Positions 20,484-56,852 are shown, counted from the first letter of the stretch. The stretch is DNA of 64,000 nt from an uncultured Pelagibacteraceae bacterium (GCA_902604245.1 CACKXQ010000002.1:11018-75017), one strand, 5' to 3'. A program made the numbers and translations. The notes: generated from the sequence alone by a model not told the origin.

Positions 20484-20493
20484 AATATCCTTT

Positions 20494-20799
20494 CTACCAA
20501 CTTGATTTTACCATACCAGGAATCTTACCTTCTAAACCTAATTGTCTTAAAGCTATTCTTGATATTTTTAATTTTCGATAAACTCCGTGTGGTCTACCTG
20601 TTATTTGACATCTATTTCTTACTCTAATTTTTGCAGAATTTCTTGGAAGATTAGAAAGTTTTTGTTGTGCTTTAAACCTTTCTTCTAATGATAATTTTTT
20701 ATTCATAATTATTTTTTTTAAATTTTTTCTTTTTTTATAATATTTTTCTGAAAGTTTTATTCTTTTATTATTTTTATTTATTGAACTTAGTTTTGCCAT
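20494..20799 (-). CDS. rpsN: 30S ribosomal protein S14 (long form)
   Basis: [19 protein letters not shown]. Confidence 0.97.
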
Positions 20800-44822: not shown

Positions 44823-45964
44823 AAGGATTTTGAAGTAATTTTTTTTTTTGGGTCAAAAAAAGGTTTTTCAATAACTTCACATTTAAAATTCTTATTCTCA
44901 ATTAAAACTTCGATTTCTAGACCAATTTTGGAATATTCAATGTCAACAATAGCTAAAGCAATATTCTTTTTTAAACGTGGTGAATAAACGGCTGAAGTAA
45001 CTTTACCTATAACATTATTATCAGCCATAAGATTCCAAAATGTAGTGTTGGGTCCGCTTAACTTTTCACATTTAATCTCTAAACCAACTTGTAATCTTTT
45101 AATCCCTTCTGCTTTAATTTTTTTAAGTGCATCTTTGCCTATAAAATTAATATCTCCATCTAAATTAACCAGACGATCTAAACCAAGTTCAAATGGGTTT
45201 GTGTGAATATCAGCATCAGCGTGGTAAGAAAGCATGCCACCTTCTATCCTTCTAATAGAAGAAGTGTGGCCTGGTTTAAGTCCAAATTCCTTTCCTACTA
45301 ACATAATTTTTTCATATAGTTCATTTCCTTTTGAACCATCTCTTAAAAATAATTCATAACCAAATTCACTTGACCAGCCGGTTCTTGATACAATTAATGG
45401 TATTCCATCTAAATCTAATTCTCTAAACCAATAATATTTTAAATCTTTTATATTTTCTCCAAATAATTTAATCATGATTTCAGCAGACTTTGGTCCTTGT
45501 AATTGTAATGGCGAAACATCTGGTTCAGTTATTTTCACATCTAATCCTGAGTTAATAGCTACACCCTGGGCCCATAATAAAATATCACTGTCACCCAAAG
45601 ATAACCAAAAATGATTTTCTCCCAAGCGTAAAAGAACTGGGTCATTTAGCACTCCGCCTTCTGCGTTTGTAATTAAAACATATTTGCATTGACCAACAGA
45701 TAATTTTGATAAATCTCTTGGGGTTAATAATTGAATAAATTTAAAAGCATCTGGTCCAGTAATTTGAACTTGTCTTTCAACAGCGACGTCACATAAAATT
45801 GCTTTTTCAATTAGGTTCCAAAAGTTTTGTTCAGGATCGCCAAAATCACGAGGTATATACATATGGTTATAAACAGAAAAACCTGTTGCGCCCCACCTGA
45901 CTGTTGCATCAAAATATGGAGATTTTCTTATTTGAGTTCCAAATCCAAAGCTTTTGTTACTCAT
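44819..45964 (-). CDS. GcvT-family aminomethyltransferase, DmdA-like paralogue
   Basis: YNHM..P, DVAVERQV, SRTGWS.E.GYE, RIEGGMLSY, TSAVYSP. Confidence 0.88.
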   Translation of the reverse strand: MSNKSFGFGTQIRKSPYFDATVRWGATGFSVYNHMYIPRDFGDPEQNFWNLIEKAILCDVAVERQVQITGPDAFKFIQLLTPRDLSKLSVGQCKYVLITNAEGGVLNDPVLLRLGENHFWLSLGDSDILLWAQGVAINSGLDVKITEPDVSPLQLQGPKSAEIMIKLFGENIKDLKYYWFRELDLDGIPLIVSRTGWSSEFGYELFLRDGSKGNELYEKIMLVGKEFGLKPGHTSSIRRIEGGMLSYHADADIHTNPFELGLDRLVNLDGDINFIGKDALKKIKAEGIKRLQVGLEIKCEKLSGPNTTFWNLMADNNVIGKVTSAVYSPRLKKNIALAIVDIEYSKIGLEIEVLIENKNFKCEVIEKPFFDPKKKITSKSL

Positions 45965-46734
45965 TAATTTGTTTCTTTTCTGATTTGCTCTATTTTAATT
46001 TTTTTTTGAAGACTTCTGTTTGAATCATATAAAAGATTAAATTTAACTTTTTTATTAATCTTAATAGATATTGTCTTTGCATTTCTAACTTCGTAATTGT
46101 CAGCAACTGAACTTATTGGTCTTTTATGAATATTTAGATTTTTAATTGTAATTTTAGATTTATCGCTCACAATTCTTCCCTTCCATCTTCTAGGTCTGAA
46201 AGCACTAATAGGCCTAATAGAAAGTTTTTTAGAGTCTAAGTTTAAAATTGGTCCATAAACTGACATATTATATGCAGTGCTTCCTGCAGGTGTTGATATC
46301 AATACACCATCAGAAACTAGTTTTTTAATAATTTTTTGCGAACCGTTAGAAATTTCAAGTGATGCAGTTTGTCTACTTTGTCTTAAAATTGAGACTTCAT
46401 TAATAGCAATAGACTTTTTAGTTTTATTAAACTTATTCTTTACACTCATTTCCAAAGGCGAAATCGAAACTTGTTTTGCTTTAGATAAATTTCTAATAGT
46501 ATTTTTTGACGAAAACTTATTCATTAAAAAACCATAACTACCAGCATTAATTCCGTAAAAAGGTTTTTTGTATTTATTATACTTTTTCAATGACGAAAGC
46601 ATAAAACCATCACCTCCAACAACAATTATAAGATTACATTTACCTAATGATATATTTTTGATTTTATGATCTAGAAAATTTTTAATTTTTCTTGATGTTT
46701 TTGTATGATCAAAAAGTATGTGTGGCTTTAACAT
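45964..46734 (-). CDS. nadK: NAD kinase
   Basis: VGGDGFML, INEV, DGVLISTPAGSTAY. Confidence 0.95.
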   Translation of the reverse strand: MLKPHILFDHTKTSRKIKNFLDHKIKNISLGKCNLIIVVGGDGFMLSSLKKYNKYKKPFYGINAGSYGFLMNKFSSKNTIRNLSKAKQVSISPLEMSVKNKFNKTKKSIAINEVSILRQSRQTASLEISNGSQKIIKKLVSDGVLISTPAGSTAYNMSVYGPILNLDSKKLSIRPISAFRPRRWKGRIVSDKSKITIKNLNIHKRPISSVADNYEVRNAKTISIKINKKVKFNLLYDSNRSLQKKIKIEQIRKETN

Positions 46735-46738
46735 TTAG

Positions 46739-46824
46739 TGGTGCCCTCGGCCAGACTCGAACTGGCACTCCATAAATGGCAAGGATTTTAAGTCCTTTGT
46801 GTCTACCAATTTCACCACGAGGGC
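46739..46824 (-). tRNA. tRNA-Leu(TAA), intact; integration target
   Basis: GCCCTCGTGGTGAAATTGGTAGACACAAAGGACTTAAAATCCTT...GTTCGAGTCTGGCCGAGGGCACCA. Confidence 0.96.
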
Positions 46825-46842
46825 ATTAATGAATTTCATGAG

Positions 46843-46871
46843 TATTTATGCTAATATTTATAATTGAACAA
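46843..46871 (-). promoter_or_regulatory. Candidate promoter for tRNA-Leu-nadK operon, supplied by cassette 1
   Basis: TTGTTC-17 nt-TAAATA; block conserved behind the tRNA half copies. Confidence 0.5.
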
Positions 46872-46931
46872 GTTTAATAAGTAAATTTTTTTTATTTTAT
46901 CTCCCTGGTTTCTAGTTTGTTTCTAGTTATC

Positions 46932-47537
46932 CTATAAAATCCCATTAGACTTTAAAATTTCTAATCCTTTATCATCCATTGAAAAATCAAAGGTAATATT
47001 GGGGTCAATATTTTCTTTTATATATTTAATATCTTGTAAATCATCTTTATTGCTTGGGTCAAAAGATGAAGTATTCCATTCCGGGTTATTAAGTCCTTGC
47101 TGAATCCAATCGTCATCCTCATCCATAAAGATATCACTTGGAGATATCATGTTAATTGCTATAGAGATTTTTTTCAAACCACTTAATTTATTTATAAAAT
47201 TTACTATTATTTCTGGATCATAAAGCAAAATATCATCTACTAAATATAATTCTCCTTTAGAATATTTTATTGGTTCACAGTAAAATTTATTATTCTTATT
47301 TATTTTATATTTCTGATTTTTTTTTAAACCCTCAATCTGATTTCTATAAGGAATTGAGTAGTTAATTTTCCATAAAAGCTGAGAAATAGAATTAGACTCT
47401 TCTATAAATTTCTGAATATCGTTATTCCAACAATAATCTTGATCATCCCAATAGGAAACATTATCTCTAACCCATAAATCTCCTCCATCATATTCGAATA
47501 CGTTATTGTTATTATTTATTAGTTTTGGAAAGACCAT
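46932..47537 (-). CDS. Hypothetical acidic protein (cassette 1 cargo)
   Basis: 201-aa ORF; stop lies inside the conserved end motif. Confidence 0.7.
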   Translation of the reverse strand: MVFPKLINNNNNVFEYDGGDLWVRDNVSYWDDQDYCWNNDIQKFIEESNSISQLLWKINYSIPYRNQIEGLKKNQKYKINKNNKFYCEPIKYSKGELYLVDDILLYDPEIIVNFINKLSGLKKISIAINMISPSDIFMDEDDDWIQQGLNNPEWNTSSFDPSNKDDLQDIKYIKENIDPNITFDFSMDDKGLEILKSNGIL

Positions 47538-47548
47538 TAATTAAAAAA

Positions 47549-48052
47549 TTAAAAAAGTTTTCTAAAAAAACTTTTAACATTTTTCTCTACTGGAGACTCA
47601 TTAAAATTTATTGTCATGTCTTTCCACAATTTAACAAGAGCTGACATACATGCTCCACCTTGATTTGTTTTAAATGATTTTTTTCCTTTGTTAATTATAT
47701 CTTGAGACATTTCACCAACTGAATCCTCATATTTTAAACCCTCTTCTGTTGCCTCATAGCTTTGTTTTGCCATCCTATCTTTTTTACTGTTCTCAATATC
47801 ATTATAGCCTTCATCATCCCAAGCTCTACGGTAACAGTAAATCACACTCTTTTTTAAATCTTTTTTACTGATCCCAATTTTTTCTGATGCTCCTTCAAAT
47901 ATACCCCTATAAAAATATATTTTAATATCATAAAGTCTTTTTGCGCTATCTCTATCCATTTGAGATGTAACTTGAGAGTAAGTCATATCACATAACTTAT
48001 GCTCACCTTTTGCTTGTTCCCAGACTAATTCAAAATTATTTTTTTTAGGCAT
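47549..48052 (-). CDS. Hypothetical protein (cassette 1 cargo)
   Basis: Likely start MPKKNNFEL at 48052. Confidence 0.7.
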   Translation of the reverse strand: MPKKNNFELVWEQAKGEHKLCDMTYSQVTSQMDRDSAKRLYDIKIYFYRGIFEGASEKIGISKKDLKKSVIYCYRRAWDDEGYNDIENSKKDRMAKQSYEATEEGLKYEDSVGEMSQDIINKGKKSFKTNQGGACMSALVKLWKDMTINFNESPVEKNVKSFFRKLF

Positions 48053-48056
48053 AATA

Positions 48057-48209
48057 TTATTTAAATTTTCCCCATGTATAATAACCACCAGCTGCACAAA
48101 TTAATATAAATACTAGAGGTCCAATCCCAAATTCACCACTAGTATCATTAAATTTCCAAATTATTATTCCTAATATTGTTCCTGCAATTATAGGGATTAA
48201 ATTTTTCAT
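48057..48209 (-). CDS. Small two-TM protein (50 aa), not in ORF track
   Basis: MKNLIPIIAGTILGIIIWKFNDTSGEFGIGPLVFILICAAGGYYTWGKFK. Confidence 0.6.
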   Translation of the reverse strand: MKNLIPIIAGTILGIIIWKFNDTSGEFGIGPLVFILICAAGGYYTWGKFK

Positions 48210-48216
48210 AAAATAA

Positions 48217-48393
48217 TCAATTTTTTAAAAAATTTGGTATCAAATAGTCTTTTTCAATTTCTTTACGCTCTTCATCTGAATATTTTTTTTTATAACAATC
48301 ATTGCACATATAAACTATCTCTAGAGTGCTTCCAATTTCAGTTAAAAAAGGTTTACTTTCTCCACATTCAGAACATTTTGACAATAATTTCAC
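48217..48393 (-). CDS. Small zinc-ribbon-like protein (58 aa, GTG start), not in ORF track
   Basis: MKLLSKCSECGESKPFLTEIGSTLEIVYMCNDCYKKKY...; two CxxC motifs. Confidence 0.6.
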   Translation of the reverse strand: MKLLSKCSECGESKPFLTEIGSTLEIVYMCNDCYKKKYSDEERKEIEKDYLIPNFLKN

Positions 48394-48569
48394 TCTTATA
48401 AATATTACAACTTTATCTATCTAGTTTCTAGTTTGTTTCTAGTTTGACGAAATTTATTATTCATATTTTCCAATAAAAGTAATTAAAGGTTTTTTAAAAC
48501 TATAGGATTTAATAGGATTTAAGACTGTATAAGACTGTGTGAGACTATAAAATATCTCTACCCTATGTT

Positions 48570-48608
48570 TTTTAAGTCCTTTGTGTCTACCAATTTCACC
48601 ACGAGGGC
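48570..48608 (-). repeat. tRNA-Leu 5'-half copy 2 (att junction)
   Basis: 39 bp identical to 46786-46824, beginning exactly at the anticodon loop. Confidence 0.95.
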
Positions 48609-48734
48609 ATGAGTTATTTTCATGAGTATTTATGCTAATATTTATAGTTGAACAAGATTAATAAGTAAATTTTTTTTAATTTATCTCCCTATGTCCAAGT
48701 TATGTCCAAGTTATCCTACAAAATCCTATAATTT

Positions 48735-50093
48735 TTATCTGCCTTTTTTAAATGGATCTAATATTAGTTTTTTGTGATTATATTTATATTTTTTATTATT
48801 ATAATGGAGTGAATTAACAACCAGTATTCTTGAATTTTCTACATCAATTAAAATCATATTCCCACCATAACCACTCATCCCAAAGATAATCTTATCTTTT
48901 AATCCTGGATAATCCATATGGAATTGACCTCCATAAGATTTAGTACGACCAACTATAGGCTCGTCGTTTTCTATGCTTCCTTTTGGTATTCTTCTTTTAT
49001 AAATTTCTTTTAAATATTTTCCAACACAAGTATCATTCTGATAATCATCCATTATAGCTTTTGCAATTCTAAGATAATCAAATCTTGTTGCCATTATGTT
49101 AGGATGTCCATTTCCAAAATGTTCGTTTAAACTAGTATAGCCATAACGAATACTATTTTTGATCTTTATTTTGTCATTAAAAACTTTGCTATAAAATTTG
49201 TCATAATCTTCACCGACTTTAAATTTCATATAATTTAAAATTAACTGAGTAACAAATCCATTGTAGTTGTATCTTTCCTTAGTTTTTTTTGTATTTTTGT
49301 TGTTAAAGTGTAAGCGCATGGTTGTTGCAATATCTCTATCTTCATATGCATCTAATTTAGTGGTACCATCTTTAAATTCATCAACATATTTTTGATCACC
49401 AGTATTCATATTTAAAAAATTAATTAATTTTTGATCATGATAAAGAGAATCTTTTATTATAGGCCAGTCATTTACTCTAGCATCAACTCCATCAATATAA
49501 CCCTCACATATTGCGTGACCTACTAAATAAGAAGTTACTGACTTACCCATTGACATTGAATAAAATTTTGTTTCATTATTCAAAAACTCTCCCAGTCTTT
49601 CTTTAGGAGAAAGTTCGTCAATTAATACTTCACCATCTTGATAATATAAATAACTAAGGATACCTTTGGTTTTCATTTGCTTTTTTAAAAATTTATCTTC
49701 AATTAAGTTGAATTTAAAATCGTAGGAATTATTTGTTGGTTTAAATTCTTTTAAATGTGAACTTCTATCTCTATATGAATATGCCCATAAATAATAAATC
49801 AGCGAGTCCCTATTTGGGTTTGAATGATAGGCAATATTATAACCTGATAATGCTTTATTTTTTATTTTGATATTTAGATTGTTAGATCCTTGAAATTTAT
49901 CACATTTATTATAATACCAAAGATTACTATATTTTGGCTCTTCTTCGCATACTGGGTTTTTTTTAATATTTAAATATTGATGATATCCATTTTCCAAAAG
50001 CCAAATATTAAACTTATTTAGTTTAGAACTCTCAGCAAATAGATTGCTTGAAGCAAATAAGCTAAAAGATAAAATTATTAATATTTTTTTCAT
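48735..50093 (-). CDS. Secreted serine hydrolase, beta-lactamase/class C-like family
   Basis: Signal peptide; SxxK (SMGKS), YxN (YNYNG), C-terminal MSGYGG. Confidence 0.85.
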   Translation of the reverse strand: MKKILIILSFSLFASSNLFAESSKLNKFNIWLLENGYHQYLNIKKNPVCEEEPKYSNLWYYNKCDKFQGSNNLNIKIKNKALSGYNIAYHSNPNRDSLIYYLWAYSYRDRSSHLKEFKPTNNSYDFKFNLIEDKFLKKQMKTKGILSYLYYQDGEVLIDELSPKERLGEFLNNETKFYSMSMGKSVTSYLVGHAICEGYIDGVDARVNDWPIIKDSLYHDQKLINFLNMNTGDQKYVDEFKDGTTKLDAYEDRDIATTMRLHFNNKNTKKTKERYNYNGFVTQLILNYMKFKVGEDYDKFYSKVFNDKIKIKNSIRYGYTSLNEHFGNGHPNIMATRFDYLRIAKAIMDDYQNDTCVGKYLKEIYKRRIPKGSIENDEPIVGRTKSYGGQFHMDYPGLKDKIIFGMSGYGGNMILIDVENSRILVVNSLHYNNKKYKYNHKKLILDPFKKGR

Positions 50094-50268
50094 TAAATTA
50101 CCTTACATTTTTATCTCTCTGTGTCCAAGTCATGTCCAAGTTTGTAACAATTAATTAAACCTTATTTTCTAATCTTAATTGAAAGCTAATTTAAAGTTAT
50201 GTGATTTTATAGGATGTTTGAGACTTCCAGAGACTGCTAAAGACTCATCAAAGAGTTAATCCCTCGGC

Positions 50269-50307
50269 TTTTAAGTCCTTTGTGTCTACCAATTTCACCA
50301 CGAGGGC
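50269..50307 (-). repeat. tRNA-Leu 5'-half copy 3 (att junction)
   Basis: 39 bp identical to 46786-46824. Confidence 0.95.
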
Positions 50308-50441
50308 ATTAATGAATTTCATGAGTGTTTATGCTAATATTTATAATTGAACAAGATGAATAAGTAAAATTTTTTTATTTTATCTCCCTATGCTCTGGTC
50401 TTGCTCTTGTTATCCTATAAAATCCCTCAAAATGAAACTAT

Positions 50442-50882
50442 CTAAATATTAATCTTATACTCAATTAATACTAGCGTTCTCCATCCATTCTTTTCTTTAA
50501 GAACTTTTTTATGAACTATTTTATATCCAGCAATACTTACATCTTCTAATTTAGAGTCAGCTGTTAAATCATAAGTTTTGGTTATGCCTTTGCTATTTTC
50601 CTTATGAGTTATGATCTCGTTAGATACAATCGAGTGTTGAGTAATATCTGCAATTTTTATTTTTGCTGATAAAATTGCTTTATTTTCAGAAATATTAAGA
50701 TCCTTAGACCAGCCATTTCCACATACTTTAATTACTTTGTTTGTGCTTTTATTTTTATCACAATAAACATTTACAAATTTTTGCAAATCATCAGGTGATG
50801 TAATTGTTTTCTTATTTTTTACATAAGAATTAGTACAATTGGTTAATAATAATCCAATTATAATTATTGATAATATTTTCAT
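50442..50882 (-). CDS. Putative lipoprotein (LPP20-like)
   Basis: Lipobox-like LLTNC; G.G.S.D...S.NKA...AK pattern. Confidence 0.65.
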   Translation of the reverse strand: MKILSIIIIGLLLTNCTNSYVKNKKTITSPDDLQKFVNVYCDKNKSTNKVIKVCGNGWSKDLNISENKAILSAKIKIADITQHSIVSNEIITHKENSKGITKTYDLTADSKLEDVSIAGYKIVHKKVLKEKNGWRTLVLIEYKINI

Positions 50883-50890
50883 TTTTTCTC

Positions 50891-51109
50891 CTATAAGTTT
50901 TCAAGTAATGTAAAAAATACCATGGTGAAAGCTCGATGGTATTTTTCATCAGTGATAAATTGGACAAATATGTTGTCCTTTTCTTCACAAGTATATGTTT
51001 CTTTCTTATTCACTAATTTATTATTTTCGACGTCCGCATATGCATAATACTTGCACTTAGCATTTGCAGGACTGATTAACAAAAAAAGAACTAATATGAC
51101 TCTAATCAT
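50891..51109 (-). CDS. Small secreted hypothetical protein
   Basis: Signal peptide ending ANA. Confidence 0.6.
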   Translation of the reverse strand: MIRVILVLFLLISPANAKCKYYAYADVENNKLVNKKETYTCEEKDNIFVQFITDEKYHRAFTMVFFTLLENL

Positions 51110-51341
51110 AAAGCTCCTTTTCTTTTTGACTTATTTCAAATCTAACTTGATTTAAAATAGCATCCATTAGAACAAAAAATGCCTTATGTACTTCTTGTTC
51201 AAATACTTTTTTTTGGCATACTGAGTTACACTCTGTCAGAACATGTATTAACGTTTGTTGATAATACTCATTAGATTTTGCAAATGAATGAGTTGTGAAA
51301 GTTATCAAAAACAAAAAAAATAGAGTTTTTATAAGCTTCAT
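51102..51341 (-). CDS. Small secreted hypothetical protein
   Basis: Signal peptide ending SFA; AGGA upstream of ATG. Confidence 0.65.
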   Translation of the reverse strand: MKLIKTLFFLFLITFTTHSFAKSNEYYQQTLIHVLTECNSVCQKKVFEQEVHKAFFVLMDAILNQVRFEISQKEKELYD

Positions 51342-51343
51342 TT

Positions 51344-51619
51344 TTATCCTTTCTTTTTATTAAGACCAACTAAGGTCATTATTTCTTTGTCATTTATTAG
51401 TTTGCTATCCAGGATTAGATATACGTGAATATTTTTTTTAAGAGCTACTTTAGCTACTTCTTTATTTTTTAAATATTTTTTATCCGCATGTCCTATCGCA
51501 AATGGTTCATTTTCAATAGCAGCTAAAACGATTTCTTTATTTTTTTTAAAATTGTTTGATAATGATTTGATCGCCCAACCATTTTTTTTAACTAATTTTA
51601 AAGCTTCTGATTTAGTAAT
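51344..51619 (-). CDS. DUF4116-like repeat protein with ATT in place of a canonical start (or start-mutated pseudogene)
   Basis: Open frame (I/M)TKSEALKLVKKNGWAIKSLSNNFKKNKEIVLAAI...; GGAGG 9 nt upstream; aligns residue for residue with the N-terminus of 51844..52632. Confidence 0.6.
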   Translation of the reverse strand: MTKSEALKLVKKNGWAIKSLSNNFKKNKEIVLAAIENEPFAIGHADKKYLKNKEVAKVALKKNIHVYLILDSKLINDKEIMTLVGLNKKKG

Positions 51620-51843
51620 AGTCTTTTTCCTCCATAAATGACTTCACCAATTCTTTAATAATTTTAGAATTGTGTTCGTCTAGTTCTTTGTCTGATAGTT
51701 TTCTTAACTCATTCTCTGAGAGATTTTGTGGAGCTTGTTTCTTTTCTTTATCAGTAATAATGACTTGTTTTATACACCTTTTAAGAAAAATTTTTCAGTG
51801 AAATAAGATTGATTATTTTTCACTTAATTAATACAATAATTTT

Positions 51844-52632
51844 ATGAATAGAGAAGAGTTATTGAAAAATGTCAAAGAGGATCCTTATGCACTTGAAGGT
51901 GCAGAAGATAAATTCAAAAAAGATAAAGAAATAGTTTTAGCAGCTGTAAAAGGTAATGGAAATATTCTTGAATATGCACACGATTCACTAAAGAAAGATA
52001 AAGATGTTGTGCAAGCAGCAGTAACAAATGAAGGTGCTTCACTAAACTTTGCAGATAAATCTTTAAAGAAAGACAAAAAGATTGTTATGGCTGCTGTTAA
52101 TCAAATGGGATCTAATCTCGAATTTGCAGATCCATCTTTAAGAAAAGATAAATCAATTGTTCTTGCTGCAATAAAAAGCTATCCTTCATCTATTGAATTT
52201 GCAGATAAAACTTTTCAAAAGGATAAAAAAATTGTTCTTATGGCTGTATCATCTAGTCCAGATGCACTAGAATTTGCTGACAACTCTTTAAAAAAAGACA
52301 AAGAAATAGTTTCTGCGTCAGTAAAATTCAATGGCTTTTCATTAACGCACGCGGATGCAGCACTAAAAAAAGATAAAGATATTGTGTTAATGGCTGTAAA
52401 ATCAAACGGGAACGCTTTAGATTTTGCTGATAATGCCTTTAAAAAAAATAAAGAAATTGTAATTGCTGCTGTATCAAAGAATGGAGGTGCCTTAGAGTAT
52501 GCGGACGAAATTTTTAAAAAAGATAAAGAAATCGCACTTATTGCTGTGCAACAAGACCCTGATGCTTTAGAGTTCGTAGATAAATCAATTCAAAAAGATA
52601 AAGATATTGTTAAAGCTTCTAAGAAAAAATAG
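51844..52632 (+). CDS. DUF4116-like tandem-repeat protein
   Basis: ~10 repeats of 25 aa, LEFADxxLKKDKEIVxAAV. Confidence 0.85.
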   Translation: MNREELLKNVKEDPYALEGAEDKFKKDKEIVLAAVKGNGNILEYAHDSLKKDKDVVQAAVTNEGASLNFADKSLKKDKKIVMAAVNQMGSNLEFADPSLRKDKSIVLAAIKSYPSSIEFADKTFQKDKKIVLMAVSSSPDALEFADNSLKKDKEIVSASVKFNGFSLTHADAALKKDKDIVLMAVKSNGNALDFADNAFKKNKEIVIAAVSKNGGALEYADEIFKKDKEIALIAVQQDPDALEFVDKSIQKDKDIVKASKKK

Positions 52633-52656
52633 TTCATAAAAATTTATTGCAAGCAG

Positions 52657-53061
52657 ATGAAAGATCCAGAAACTGAATTAGTGAATTTCCTAAATAAGAT
52701 TATAGATGAGAATATAGAAAATTTTAAAGAACAAGGCGATTTTATAGTTCGTCCAGGAATTGCCTATGACAGATTTGATTTAACTGCTGTTGATGGATCA
52801 TATGATATGAGTCTTGCTGGATTAGTACATCATTTTTTATATGAAAGAGGTCATTATGAAAAAATACTACCTAAAAATGAATTTGAGGAATGTGAAAATG
52901 TTGTTAAAAATTATCCTGAGAGTATTTATGGTCCAGAGGATGATGAAGATATACAACTAACTATTGACGAATTGCATCATGTTGCAAGACAAACTGTAGG
53001 AAATAAACTAAAAAACTTAAAGTTTAAAATCTCAGATGAATTTGAAGAATTACTAGATTAA
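52657..53061 (+). CDS. Hypothetical acidic protein
   Basis: 134-aa D/E-rich ORF; TAATG overlap with next gene. Confidence 0.7.
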   Translation: MKDPETELVNFLNKIIDENIENFKEQGDFIVRPGIAYDRFDLTAVDGSYDMSLAGLVHHFLYERGHYEKILPKNEFEECENVVKNYPESIYGPEDDEDIQLTIDELHHVARQTVGNKLKNLKFKISDEFEELLD

Positions 53062-53606
53062 TGAATAGTTTTTTTATAAATCCTAAAGATGCGCAATTTT
53101 CAATAAAAAAATCTAAGGAAAGATTAAAAGAGTATCTTTTCATTTTTAACCTATTAATTGATAAAGAAAAAAAAACCAAACTTTCAAAAGAAGAAAGTGC
53201 AAAACTAATTAGTGTTGTTGAGTCAGCTGCAATTGAGTGCACTATGCAATTTTTTTGGAAATGTGGATATTGGATTTTAAGAGAGCAACAAACTAAAGGT
53301 CCAATGGATTTATATGTTTACAAAATAGTTAATGGTGAAAAAATTGAATACGCTGTTGATGTTAAAGGTATACGTCCTAATGCTAAAAAGAAACCAGCTC
53401 ATAAACCAACCTTGCCCACAGGTTACGAGAAAAAATCACATCATATTAGAGATCAAATTTTAAAGAGAATTGTTGCAATTGTTTATTTGAAAGATGAAAA
53501 AACAAGAAAACAAATTAGCTTTACTGAGGGTTGGCATACTTCTTTTAAAGGTGGCCAAGCAGGACTTACTGGAAAAAGAATTAAAATAAATAAAAATCGA
53601 TTTTAA
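53061..53606 (+). CDS. Putative PD-(D/E)xK restriction-like nuclease
   Basis: E...GPMDL-x15-VDVKG spacing; basic C-terminal half. Confidence 0.5.
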   Translation: MNSFFINPKDAQFSIKKSKERLKEYLFIFNLLIDKEKKTKLSKEESAKLISVVESAAIECTMQFFWKCGYWILREQQTKGPMDLYVYKIVNGEKIEYAVDVKGIRPNAKKKPAHKPTLPTGYEKKSHHIRDQILKRIVAIVYLKDEKTRKQISFTEGWHTSFKGGQAGLTGKRIKINKNRF

Positions 53607-53630
53607 TTTAAATTTTACTTCTAGATTTGA

Positions 53631-54086
53631 TTATTTTATCGACAATTTAAGTTTTGCTATTTTTTCCTCAACTTCATTTATTGCTTTATAAATTTGATCT
53701 TTTTCAGTTTTACTAATTTCTTTTCCCATTGGGCTATCAGGGCTCATTGCATCATGAGTTGTATCCATAAGATTGCCTACCCTACCACCTATTTTAATTA
53801 ATGTGCTCGCAACATTTTCATATACATTTACTTTGTTAAATTCATCCTCAAGTGTAAGAGAGAAATTATCAATAAACGGTGTACCTAGGGATTTTCTTTG
53901 CATTAAAATATCAAGTTTTATTGCATCAATATAATGTAAATTATGATCTTTATCATCTGGGTCACTACATTTTCTAAAGTGAGAAATTGACTTATTGGTA
54001 ATATTTTTTACTTCATCTTCTTCAAGTTTGCTAATTACTTGCGAAAGAACATGCTCAACAGTTAAAGGTTCACGTAGTTTTGTCAT
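53631..54086 (-). CDS. Putative phage-type regulatory protein (CII-like HTH)
   Basis: V..IT.KS.S.FRKCSDPD pattern followed by helical C-terminus. Confidence 0.5.
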   Translation of the reverse strand: MTKLREPLTVEHVLSQVISKLEEDEVKNITNKSISHFRKCSDPDDKDHNLHYIDAIKLDILMQRKSLGTPFIDNFSLTLEDEFNKVNVYENVASTLIKIGGRVGNLMDTTHDAMSPDSPMGKEISKTEKDQIYKAINEVEEKIAKLKLSIK

Positions 54087-54089
54087 TTT

Positions 54090-54890
54090 CTATATTAATT
54101 CTTTTCCCGCTTCTAAGTACATACATTTTTCACAACTCTTATTAATTTCAGGAACTTTATCTAGTTCTAAAGTTTTTTTCATATCACTGATATTATCTTC
54201 TACCCAAGAGGTATCTGTAACGTACGGAACTAAAGTTATTGTAAAATTTAATTTTCCCTCAAAATTGTCAAAACTTTTTTCACCATTACATACATAAAAA
54301 TATGAAGTATCTGAAACTTTAAAACCCATTTTTCTAAGAATATGAACATATATATCCATCTGTATTTTATAACCTTGGTGAAAAATACTTTCTAAATAAG
54401 CTTTAGTTTCAACTTTGGTATTACTTGATTGAGCCTTATAATCTACTACAACTAATTCCTCTTTATCTAAATCATACCAAATATCATCTACTCCACCATG
54501 AATTTCTAAATTGGTATCTTTATCTAAATATGAAATTCCACCAGATAAAGAGTTTCTCCAATTATCTAGTTCTTCATGCTGAAAAGGAATAAAATTAAGA
54601 TTATGTTTCTTAAATATTGGGTGTGGTTTTTTTTGGCTTCTCAGTAAATCAAATTCTTTTTTAAGTAGATCATCAACTGCAACATTTAATGACCAGCCAG
54701 GCATTCCTGGTTCTTTCAATCCCTTAACCCTATCAAGATAAAAACATCTTTTGCAATCTAAAAAACTACTAAATTTTGATCGGCTAATTTTAAAAGGCTC
54801 ATTGGTTCCTCTTTTATAAACACTTCCTTTTCGATTTCTTAAAGGATTTACTTCAACTAAATTACCTTTGCTATCTCTTTTTAAGCCCAT
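54090..54890 (-). CDS. PD-(D/E)xK nuclease, RecB/AddB/Cas4-like superfamily
   Basis: ISRSK..FLDCKRCFY, GGVDD, VVVDYKA, QMDIY, C-terminal CEKC. Confidence 0.85.
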   Translation of the reverse strand: MGLKRDSKGNLVEVNPLRNRKGSVYKRGTNEPFKISRSKFSSFLDCKRCFYLDRVKGLKEPGMPGWSLNVAVDDLLKKEFDLLRSQKKPHPIFKKHNLNFIPFQHEELDNWRNSLSGGISYLDKDTNLEIHGGVDDIWYDLDKEELVVVDYKAQSSNTKVETKAYLESIFHQGYKIQMDIYVHILRKMGFKVSDTSYFYVCNGEKSFDNFEGKLNFTITLVPYVTDTSWVEDNISDMKKTLELDKVPEINKSCEKCMYLEAGKELI

Positions 54891-55058
54891 AAGTTTATCT
54901 TACTATCTCTCCGTGCTCTTGTCTTGCTCTGGTTTGAGAAGTTAATTAAGTATTATTTTCCAATGTTATTATAAAGCTAAATTAAAGTTATGAGATTTTA
55001 TAGGATATTTAGACTACCCTGGACTACTACGGACTGACTTTAACTTATATCCCTCGGC

Positions 55059-55097
55059 TTTTAAGTCCTTTGTGTCTACCAATTTCACCACGTGGGT
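55059..55097 (-). repeat. tRNA-Leu 5'-half copy 4 (terminal, degenerate)
   Basis: 37/39 identical; 5' acceptor strand ACCCACG instead of GCCCTCG. Confidence 0.93.
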
Positions 55098-55136
55098 ATG
55101 AGTTATTTTCATGAGTATTTATGCTAATATTTATGT

Positions 55137-56852
55137 ATGAATAAATTAAAGTTAATATTAGAAAGTATTAACTCTAGAGATTTAGCAAAAGCACTTAAAC
55201 TTTGTAATGAATATGGAAATGAAGAAAGAGATAATAAACATTTAATTAACAATTTTAAAGGTGTTATTTATTTCCTTGAAGGGAAACTAGATCTTGCAGA
55301 GAATAATTTCTTAAATTCACATTTGTTAAATAGTAATTTTGAAGATCCAATAAAAAATTTATATTTAATTTATTTAAAAAAAAATTATCCAATAAAACTT
55401 TTAGAATTTGCAAAAAAACTTTATGAAATAGATAATGAAAATGATCTATATATTTATCAATTAGCTTATGCTCATGAAATAAATAATAATAATAAGTTAG
55501 CTTTAGAGTTTTATATAAAATGTATTCATCTTAATGGTTCTAATAAAATAAAAGCTCTTAATAATGCAGGTAGTATATATCTTAAAAATAATAAACCTAA
55601 AACCTCAATAAGATTTTTTTTAGATGCTTACAATATTAATAAAAATGACAAGATTTTAATTAATAATTTATTCCTTAATTACATTAACTTAAAAGATATC
55701 AAAAATTCTGATGAATTTTTTAAACTAGCCGAAACCAAAGATGAGAAATATATAGAATTTTTATATAATAAAGCAGAATATAAAATTCTTAAAGAAGAGT
55801 ATGACGAAGCAATAGAAATTCTAACCACCAATAAAAAAATACTTAAATTTAAATTAGCTCTTATTGGTCTTTATTTTAATATGGGCAATGAAAAAGATGC
55901 AAAAAATCTTCTTGATAGCTCCAGAGACGAATTTAAGAATAATATAAATTTTTATAATTATATTGGGATCAGATCTCTGTATGAGGGTAACTTTGAAGAT
56001 GGATGGAAATACTATGAATATAGGGGTTCAAAATTAACGAATATTCTAAGTTCAACTAAAGAATGGAATGGTGAAAATTTAGAGAGAAAAAGCATAGTTG
56101 TTTTTAGTGAACAAGGTTTAGGTGATTCAATACAATTTTCTAAATATATAATTTCACTATGTAAAATATCAAAGAATGTAAGTTTTGTTGTAAATAAAAG
56201 TATCTATAATTTATTTAATAATAGTATTGAAAATTTAAATATTAAAACGATAGAAACTTTGGAAGATAAGAATTTTGATTATAAAATTACATTAGGTTCA
56301 TTAATTAAATTTTTTTATAAAGAAAAATATGATTTCAAAGATATCTTGATTAAAAAAGATGAAGTACAGATAGAAAATTGGAGTAAAAAGATTGATAACT
56401 CTAAACCTAAAGTTGGATTAGTTTGGTCGGGTTCTTTTCATGGTCCAAATCAGCCTTTTAGATCAGTACCTTTAAAAAGTTTAGACAAGATTTTATCTTT
56501 AGATATAAACTTTTATGGATTGCAAAATGAAATATGGGAAAGAGATAAACATTATTTTGAAAATTCTAGTATATTAGATTTTGGAAAATATAATCTAGTA
56601 GAAATCTCATCTATTATAGAAAATTTGGATTTAGTTATATCAGCAGACACGTCTATACTTCATCTTTCTTGTTCTCTTAATAAGGATACATGGGGTATTT
56701 TTAATATATATCCAGATTGGAGGTGGGGTGAGTTTGATAAAATAAACCCTTATCCTTCCTTACAAATGATTAAACAAAAGAAGTTCAACCAATGGGATGA
56801 TGTTGCTGATGAAATATTAAAAAAATTACAACTCAAATTTAATTTAGCTTAG
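55137..56852 (+). CDS. TPR-repeat protein with C-terminal GT9-like glycosyltransferase domain
   Basis: TPR helices; GWKYYEYR, EQGLGDSIQF, VGLVWSG, LDLVISADTS..HL, DWRW. Confidence 0.85.
   Translation: MNKLKLILESINSRDLAKALKLCNEYGNEERDNKHLINNFKGVIYFLEGKLDLAENNFLNSHLLNSNFEDPIKNLYLIYLKKNYPIKLLEFAKKLYEIDNENDLYIYQLAYAHEINNNNKLALEFYIKCIHLNGSNKIKALNNAGSIYLKNNKPKTSIRFFLDAYNINKNDKILINNLFLNYINLKDIKNSDEFFKLAETKDEKYIEFLYNKAEYKILKEEYDEAIEILTTNKKILKFKLALIGLYFNMGNEKDAKNLLDSSRDEFKNNINFYNYIGIRSLYEGNFEDGWKYYEYRGSKLTNILSSTKEWNGENLERKSIVVFSEQGLGDSIQFSKYIISLCKISKNVSFVVNKSIYNLFNNSIENLNIKTIETLEDKNFDYKITLGSLIKFFYKEKYDFKDILIKKDEVQIENWSKKIDNSKPKVGLVWSGSFHGPNQPFRSVPLKSLDKILSLDINFYGLQNEIWERDKHYFENSSILDFGKYNLVEISSIIENLDLVISADTSILHLSCSLNKDTWGIFNIYPDWRWGEFDKINPYPSLQMIKQKKFNQWDDVADEILKKLQLKFNLA

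Follow-up and report, generated by a model that had tools for sequence, protein, structure and literature searches.

Stacked cassettes without an integrase at tRNA-Leu(UAA) of an uncultured Pelagibacteraceae bacterium, and the element family that may mobilise them

Introduction

Three gene cassettes, none of them encoding a recombinase, lie in tandem at a tRNA-Leu(UAA) gene in a 64,000-nucleotide stretch of DNA from an uncultured Pelagibacteraceae bacterium (GCA_902604245.1 CACKXQ010000002.1:11018-75017; the whole stretch is called the window here, and positions are counted from its first letter). We think that the region is probably a tandem stack of non-autonomous integrative mini-elements that use the cognate integrases of an autonomous element family. 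Each cassette has a core formed by half of the tRNA gene, two conserved arms, and a short word, private to the cassette, that is repeated in tandem in both arms; the same core, arm features and words occur in elements of about 7.7–9 kb that do encode an integrase. The structure is real and widespread in the genus, and active mobilisation is likely.

Results

The tRNA-Leu(UAA) locus and its repeats

A 41-nt stretch of the tRNA gene, from the anticodon loop to the 5′ end and beginning TTTTAAG on the plus strand, is found exactly at 46786, 48570 and 50269 and, with two substitutions, at 55059, the sole mutated copy. The copies set unit lengths of 1784, 1699 and 4790 bp. An earlier note, made from the sequence of this DNA alone, had reported the recurrences at 48570, 50269 and 55059 together with these unit sizes, which coordinates and alignment confirm, as well as homologous left and right arms of about 155 bp, whose positions and sizes it had right: the left arms extend over about 158 bp with 87–91% identity among the first three copies, and the right arms of the three units align over about 160 bp with a mean column identity of 81%. 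The repeat runs past the end of the tRNA, about 120 bp upstream of it being duplicated as well, and the cargo of the three units is mutually unrelated.

The copy at 55059 is the original 5′ half of the tRNA, displaced. It has the native promoter block only, after which a TPR (tetratricopeptide repeat)/glycosyltransferase-like gene starts at 55137, and given its two substitutions an exact loss of all three cassettes would leave an altered tRNA. In this displaced half (55059–55140) the promoter block reaches as far as the start codon of that gene.

Anatomy of one cassette

Read on the plus strand, each unit starts with the core, made up of the loop and the tRNA 5′ half; next come a promoter-like block equal to the native upstream region of tRNA-Leu(UAA) in relatives, a T-run and a head, TTATCTCYCT. 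The left arm, which we call P′, ends with a word of 7–8 nt given twice at an 11-nt period and a 14-nt half of an inverted repeat, IR_L (ATCCTATAAAATCC), and then the cargo begins. The right arm, P, repeats the head and the same word twice, followed by about 70 AT-rich bases, the partner half of the inverted repeat, IR_R, three GACT boxes at a 10-nt period and some 20 bases that lead into the next core (Table 1). The private words are A (GTTTCTAG) in unit 1, B (TGTCCAAG) in unit 2 and C (TGCTCTGG / TGCTCTTG) in unit 3. A junction between units consists of P arm, tRNA half and P′ arm, about 320 bp in all, with the words as direct tandem copies. The description of the units as cassettes without an integrase but with complete attP arms, also made in the earlier note, is borne out, as core, both arms, GACT boxes and paired words are present in each.

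Table 1. Features of the cassette array, in window coordinates.
Feature	Position	Strand	Content
Intact tRNA-Leu(UAA)	46739–46824	−	called as tRNA-Leu(taa) by ARAGORN; its 5′ half, 46786–46824, comes from cassette 1
Cassette 1 P′ (left) arm	46786–46943		core/tRNA half, native-like promoter block, head TTATCTCCCT at 46897, word A GTTTCTAG twice, IR_L 46929–46942
Cassette 1 cargo	46932–48393	−	four open reading frames (ORFs; 201, 182, 50 and 58 aa)
Cassette 1 P (right) arm	48412–48569		head TTATCTATCT, word A twice, AT-rich stretch, IR_R 48505–48518, three GACT boxes 48523–48546
Cassette 2 P′ arm	48570–48727		exact tRNA-half copy, promoter block, word B TGTCCAAG twice within 48680–48712, IR_L 48713–48726
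Cassette 2 cargo	48735–50093	−	single 452-aa secreted protein
Cassette 2 P arm	50110–50268		head TTATCTCTCT, word B twice, IR_R 50202–50215, GACT boxes 50222–50245
Cassette 3 P′ arm	50269–50426		exact tRNA-half copy, promoter block, word C TGCTCTGG / TGCTCTTG, IR_L 50412–50425
Cassette 3 cargo	50442–54890		eight ORFs
Cassette 3 P arm	54901–55058		word C twice, IR_R 54993–55006, GACT boxes 55012–55035
Displaced original tRNA 5′ half and native promoter block	55059–55135		two substitutions in the acceptor-stem part

Relatives fall into three classes by their right arm. In all three, identity with the real tRNA starts at the first base of the loop and the last bases before the loop differ among the classes, as expected if strand exchange sits in the 7-nt loop. 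The two direct repeats within one unit differ outside the words, which marks the words as conserved sites and not as fresh duplications. We also considered a transposon-like reading, in which the 33-bp direct repeats would be a target duplication and IR_L and IR_R terminal inverted repeats, and rejected it because of those differences outside the words and because IR_R is part of the empty scaffold and IR_L arrives with the cargo. Right arms of class b, to which units 2 and 3 belong, read GCCGAGGG after the loop on the tRNA strand, a sequence that could pair with the tRNA 5′ end (50246–50307 and 55036–55097, minus strand); folds of the half-tRNA with the start of the P arm were nevertheless no more stable than those of shuffled sequences (z 0.2–0.8), and classes a and c lack GCCGAGGG. 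A promoter and terminator scan of this AT-rich DNA gave fewer matches than shuffled sequence.

The private words are paired and follow the integrase

An exact tandem 7-mer is present in both arms of 30 units, and in 25 of these the left word equals the right word, compared to 9.9% of the 870 mismatched left/right pairs that served as control. Cassettes carry at least 20 word types, and two sampled units have mismatched words (L100 and L102). In the integrase-bearing elements described below, integrases that are 94% identical have the same word, and at 90%, 70%, 54% and 49% identity the words differ; the protein varies most in its N-terminal 150 residues. This co-variation suggests that the words are arm-type sites read by the N-domain of the integrase. 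Scans of IMG/VR for words A, B and C returned only unrelated tandem repeats of other organisms, with neither core nor integrase.

Integrase-bearing relatives share core, arms and words

An exact search of IMG/VR for the core matched 23 contigs (L049–L071). They comprise six or more unrelated kinds of element and phage, each with its own arm repeats and one of them the HTVC105P-like podophages; the 5′ half of tRNA-Leu(UAA) is an integration hotspot. In two of these contigs a complete tRNA-Leu adjoins the core. A cassette-type left arm is present on one of the 23 only (L057), an ambiguous case with an unexplained left flank that is possibly chimeric, and it was not used. Four contigs (L049, L064, L068 and L070) have the core, the TTATCTC head and the GACT boxes, with private words in tandem in each arm, and carry an integrase and a primase-helicase. 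The first of them has 7799 bp with a terminal repeat, i.e., a circle of about 7.7 kb, and encodes a tyrosine integrase of 545 aa, an AEP primase with a fused DUF5906 helicase-like part, a RusA-like protein and small ORFs. The integrase of this contig matches phrog_1 (4e-20), and an integrase of the AG-903-K07 type (L083, 10538–12175, minus strand) matches PF00589 at 40.4 bits against a cut-off of 27.1. Taken across IMG/VR and the other sources, the core, boxes, head and words of the cassettes are shared with integrase-bearing L049, L082, L083 and L166.

Two genomes carry such an element with a word that is also a cassette word. In AG-903-K07 a 7776-bp integrase element lies between tRNA-Leu and a tRNA half, and its word, GTTTCTAG, is that of unit 1; in AG-414-K15 the element has 8806 bp and is likewise bounded by tRNA halves, and its word, TGTGCTGG, is a cassette word in three other genomes. 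A metagenome scan added 80 integrase loci, mostly on contigs of 7.2–9.7 kb, whose P-arm words fall within codons 9–20 of the integrase gene. Many word types at these loci are cassette words as well: GTGCAAG, GTACGAG, GTAATAG, GTACAAG, GTGCTGG, GTACTGG, GTACCAG, ATCCGAG and GTTTCTAG. The words of units 2 and 3, B and C, were found on autonomous-type P′ arms (L161 and L180). Eight contigs (L139, L141, L142, L148, L150, L158, L161 and L180) combine the integrase P arm of one word with an autonomous-type P′ arm of another around one core, and may be tandem autonomous elements or hybrids made by cross-recombination.

Up to the head motif, the P arm of the cassettes shares homology with the region where the integrase gene starts, and the cargo occupies the place and direction of the integrase. 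Cassettes with many different words have IR_L, IR_R, a native-like promoter and cargo boundaries at the same base in common. Of about 48 integrase-bearing elements, not one has IR_R in the P arm that belongs to it, and none has a P′ arm of its own with IR_L or with the native-like promoter. Where arms with these features do appear in the integrase data set, they are part of a neighbouring cassette (L147) or of the native site (L117 and L118). Such cassette-only features point to a lineage of cassettes rather than to repeated accidental deletions.

Search for a recombinase in the source assembly

Profiles of PF00589, PF00239 and the 545-aa integrase family had no match in the units, the window or the whole source assembly (1.07 Mb in 40 contigs, 76% complete), and no recombinase was matched among the 13 cargo ORFs. 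This agrees with the earlier note, which had seen no recombinase in the units or the window, and it extends the search for integrases to the remaining genome. As even XerC/D went unseen at 76% completeness, the absence of an integrase from the cell is not proven.

Half-tRNA arrays across the genus

We scanned the 401 species-representative genomes of the genus, a Pelagibacter genus of SAR11, for the half-tRNA pattern and found it in 291, with two to five copies in about 115 of these (counted by hand from the table) at spacings of 267 bp to 11 kb; chance is ruled out by a control with the pattern written backwards, which gave 0 matches in the same genomes. A sample of 49 units, drawn from 41 arrays, has recurring arms around unrelated cargo. 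Number, order, size and cargo of the units vary among relatives while the arms remain constant, which is the behaviour that the earlier note had named as support for its proposal. Among other genomes with a completeness of 85% or more, 28 of 150 have the class-b right arm (E ≤1e-13), compared to 7 of 201 genus genomes for the 545-aa integrase, of which only two have close full-length copies; cassettes are therefore several times commoner than the integrase.

One unit is “empty” (L085; genome G109, contig C2, about 20488–20788): it is 267 bp long, with the left arm fused to the right arm and a single head-plus-word repeat, the cargo and IR_L being gone. A deletion between its pair of 33-bp direct repeats produced it. 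We also compared positions 45500–56500 with short Logan contigs from four metagenome runs of four studies, and all four contained near-identical pieces of the cargo of unit 1. In one Logan contig a left arm is joined to a right arm via a single foreign word, much as in the 267-bp unit.

Cargo genes

Most cargo proteins have no match in Pfam, PHROGs, PADLOC or NCBIfam, and none of the four ORFs of cassette 1 matches any family. In cassette 2 one ORF fills the space between the arms, just as the earlier note had described that unit. Its protein has an S-x-x-K motif and a weak likeness to class C beta-lactamase-type serine hydrolases (Pfam E 0.28, PDB E 0.67); relatives are labelled “CubicO group peptidase” by the Joint Genome Institute (JGI), and with more than 3000 of them the protein belongs to a very large family of Candidatus Pelagibacter. 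Paralogues occur in tRNA-Leu cassettes with other words (L095, 64% identity; L036, 47%). Cassette 3 encodes small secreted proteins, a Cas4-like PD-(D/E)XK nuclease (54090–54890, minus strand), a DUF4116 protein (51844–52632, plus strand; 262 aa in ten repeats with a 75-nt period, E 1e-132) and a 151-aa protein with a faint CII-like match. The last is found as well on an IMG/VR contig that bears an integrase element of the cassette-like family (L070), and a homologue of its gene lies beside a DUF4116 gene in an 11-kb unit of another genome (G417, L099).

Only two other genes in the array of the window share the plus strand with the DUF4116 gene. Across 31 cassette units, the ORF that adjoins the P arm lies on the tRNA strand in every case, and 20,796 of 22,069 coded residues (94%) are on that strand. 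The cargo sits downstream of the copy of the tRNA promoter that belongs to the next unit and may be transcribed from it.

The gene family of unit 2 is also found in other settings. In polar Pelagibacter (L106, Pelagibacter sp. Uisw_136, CP159812.1; L107–L111) members with 82% identity are flanked by a different direct repeat of 26 nt, AATCAGGTGTCTAGGTGATGGAATGA, with three copies in L106 and three in L109, where they adjoin tRNA-Val(gac); the neighbours vary among contigs, and the loci look like a second cassette system with another attachment site. Members with 84–85% identity lie within ordinary operons for an ABC transporter, molybdopterin synthesis and polysaccharide lyases (L204, L206 and L207), where start and stop codons overlap. 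Occurring in operons and cassettes alike, the 452-aa proteins form one gene family that moves between both.

Discussion

The mechanism that we infer, which covers recognition of the words by the integrase, mobilisation in trans, the arrival order and the source of transcription, would start from autonomous elements that integrate at the anticodon loop of tRNA-Leu(UAA) and swap out the 5′ half of the tRNA. A cassette retains a whole attP, comprising the core, a P′ arm with the promoter for the rebuilt tRNA and a P arm with the GACT boxes, and one integrase lineage would bind its private word as an arm-type site. Made by an autonomous element, either resident or arriving together with the cassette, such a cognate integrase would excise and insert cassettes, and may act on single ones or on composites that include its own element. 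New cassettes would enter at the intact tRNA and shift older units outward; the earlier note had likewise placed the newest unit there, and the decayed far copy of the tRNA half fits such an order. The cargo would be read in the direction of the tRNA, starting either in the P arm or at the next unit's displaced copy of the promoter.

Several observations weigh against this mechanism. No integrase was found in the source assembly, though this is only 76% complete, and words B and C were captured as arms and not together with their integrase gene. Many arrays end in a cassette that has kept the left arm and lost the right, and a degraded form of cassette 2 (L105) has the gene at 88% identity and word B left and no right arm; truncated distal cassettes and this degraded copy together imply that decay is common. 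The Logan contigs break at repeats, and no circle, empty site or same-word P-core-P′ junction could be read in them. Conserved arms could equally anchor homologous recombination, and the cassette model leaves unexplained how new cargo comes to be installed at fixed boundaries.

Much of this would suit cassettes that are inert fossils, i.e., leftovers of integrase-bearing elements that suffered internal deletions, comparable to CIMEs (cis-mobilisable elements, compared below), which have lost their mobility and are inherited vertically until they decay. The missing integrase, the frequent distal truncation, the degraded copy of cassette 2, the lack of junction reads and the 267-bp unit left by deletion between direct repeats all point that way. 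We nonetheless consider it rather unlikely, as boundaries fall on the same base in cassettes of more than 20 different words, which also have IR_L, IR_R and the native-like promoter in common, three features that no integrase-bearing element has, and as both arms and words are intact despite unrelated cargo. Nor would fossils be expected to outnumber the integrase several times, or arrays to differ in number and order between species-level relatives. A different account, which we hold to be improbable, is that homologous recombination, following DNA uptake or transduction, is the main way in which the cassettes spread, with the tRNA half, the promoter and the P-arm blocks as anchors at which cargo is exchanged and the att features as relics. 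Conserved blocks of about 100–130 bp do flank every cargo, and the words, lying within the blocks and adjoining the cargo, would travel along and stay matched; moreover, the cargo of unit 2 occurs at 82–88% identity in other loci and in another cassette system, which shows that this gene is freely exchanged. However, the two units with mismatched words fit shuffling that is rare, not frequent, and recombination of this kind explains neither the retention of arm-type sites, GACT boxes and an exact core nor the equality of the words with those of living integrase lineages.

The helper itself might also be of another kind. Podophages of the HTVC105P/HTVC109P type have been shown experimentally to integrate at tRNA-Leu(TAA) (10.1101/410191), and the HTVC105P attP, which lies beside the phage integrase, matches 45 nt of the same tRNA half. 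We rejected such a temperate pelagiphage as the helper, and would now give the idea very little credence, since the phage arms are unrelated to those of the cassettes, with GCGGATAG-type repeats and neither GACT boxes nor a TTATCTC head, and since the phage integrases have about 290 aa and are not of the 545-aa family. Mini-elements that depend on the cognate integrases of the autonomous family thus remain our preferred explanation of the array.

Pelagibacter is the most abundant marine bacterium. Recent preprints on its pangenome report almost no canonical mobility genes, and this scarcity raises the question of how its large flexible gene pool moves. The cassettes offer a concrete vehicle that can be read from sequence: they are small, have a complete attachment site and occur in about one fifth, if not more, of the species-level genomes that we searched, and the integrase that seems to match them is several times rarer. 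Their private words provide a testable specificity code of word against integrase N-domain, and the arrays a readable record of gene gain at one locus. A far wider scenario, which we offer tentatively and would not yet favour, is a distributed cassette economy in SAR11, similar to that of integrons: thousands of cargo-only mini-elements, each with a word that acts as a barcode for one satellite-borne integrase lineage, would be actively excised, exchanged and stacked at tRNA-Leu and other tRNAs, expressed from duplicated tRNA promoters, and would form a main route for single flexible genes. If this were true, the cassettes would parasitise satellites that are themselves parasites of phages, and a main route of single-gene acquisition would have been found in a bacterium that is thought to be nearly free of mobile elements.

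In the literature that we searched on pelagiphages, tycheposons, virion-encapsidated integrative mobile elements (VEIMEs), CIMEs and Pelagibacter pangenomes we found no description of integrase-less cassettes with matched private arm words at tRNA-Leu, though each part of the structure has parallels. A lambda-type attP has a core between P and P′ arms with repeated short sites that are matched to an integrase with an extra N-terminal domain. The cassettes resemble it in having arm-type words in both arms that co-vary with the integrase, from which we take it that the words are bound; they differ in having one common core across an element family whose lineages have different words. Integrons, to which the earlier note had likened the region, share arrays of small co-oriented cassettes, mostly of single or few genes of unrelated function, with recombination sites between them. 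That part of the comparison stands, and the rest does not: there is no resident IntI, no attI and no attC, the array begins at a tRNA gene, and each cassette brings its own promoter and a whole attP of the lambda type, arm sites included, its integrase presumably coming from other mobile elements.

The autonomous relatives, judged by module content, are similar to tycheposons and VEIMEs in having a tyrosine recombinase, a primase/helicase and partial tRNA repeats, whereas the cassettes of the window have no recombinase of their own. VEIME satellites and recombinase-associated elements of Pelagibacter from marine particles are small integrase-plus-primase elements, some of them integrated near tRNAs in Pelagibacter genomes (PMC9618062, PMC11876622). 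Occurrence in the virus fraction is a further likeness, as four members of the 545-aa-integrase family are in IMG/VR, which is in itself no proof of packaging; both papers, however, concern elements that bear an integrase. Tycheposons of Prochlorococcus carry a tyrosine recombinase, a primase/helicase and cargo at tRNA genes and leave partial tRNA repeats and remnants (10.1101/2020.12.28.424599). Islands at tRNA genes, neighbours split by a partial tRNA, degenerate remnants and an oligotrophic marine host are common to both systems. The tycheposon paper describes integrase-carrying elements and their remnants, not intact integrase-less cassettes with matched words, and makes no mention of SAR11 or Pelagibacter.

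The closest precedent for borrowing an integrase is found in CIMEs, which are bounded by attL and attR, lack integrase and transfer genes, and accrete in tandem at the att sites of ICEs (integrative and conjugative elements) or IMEs (integrative and mobilisable elements) in Streptococcus and others (PMC5704250); their mobilisation by the integrase of a neighbour has been suggested or demonstrated (PMC5704250, which cites Pavlovic 2004 and Bellanger 2011). Like them, the cassettes lie between attL and attR with no genes for integration or transfer, stand in tandem at a site of the tRNA type, and have att sites homologous to those of autonomous elements at the same target. Unlike them, they have as putative helpers non-conjugative integrase-plus-primase elements of about 8 kb in a streamlined marine bacterium, they take the place of the tRNA's 5′ half and promoter, and they form a lineage of their own with features that the autonomous elements lack and a private word that resembles a barcode. 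With the borrowing of an integrase known from CIMEs and a close ecological parallel in tycheposon islands, we regard the cassettes as an extension of known systems rather than as a new category.

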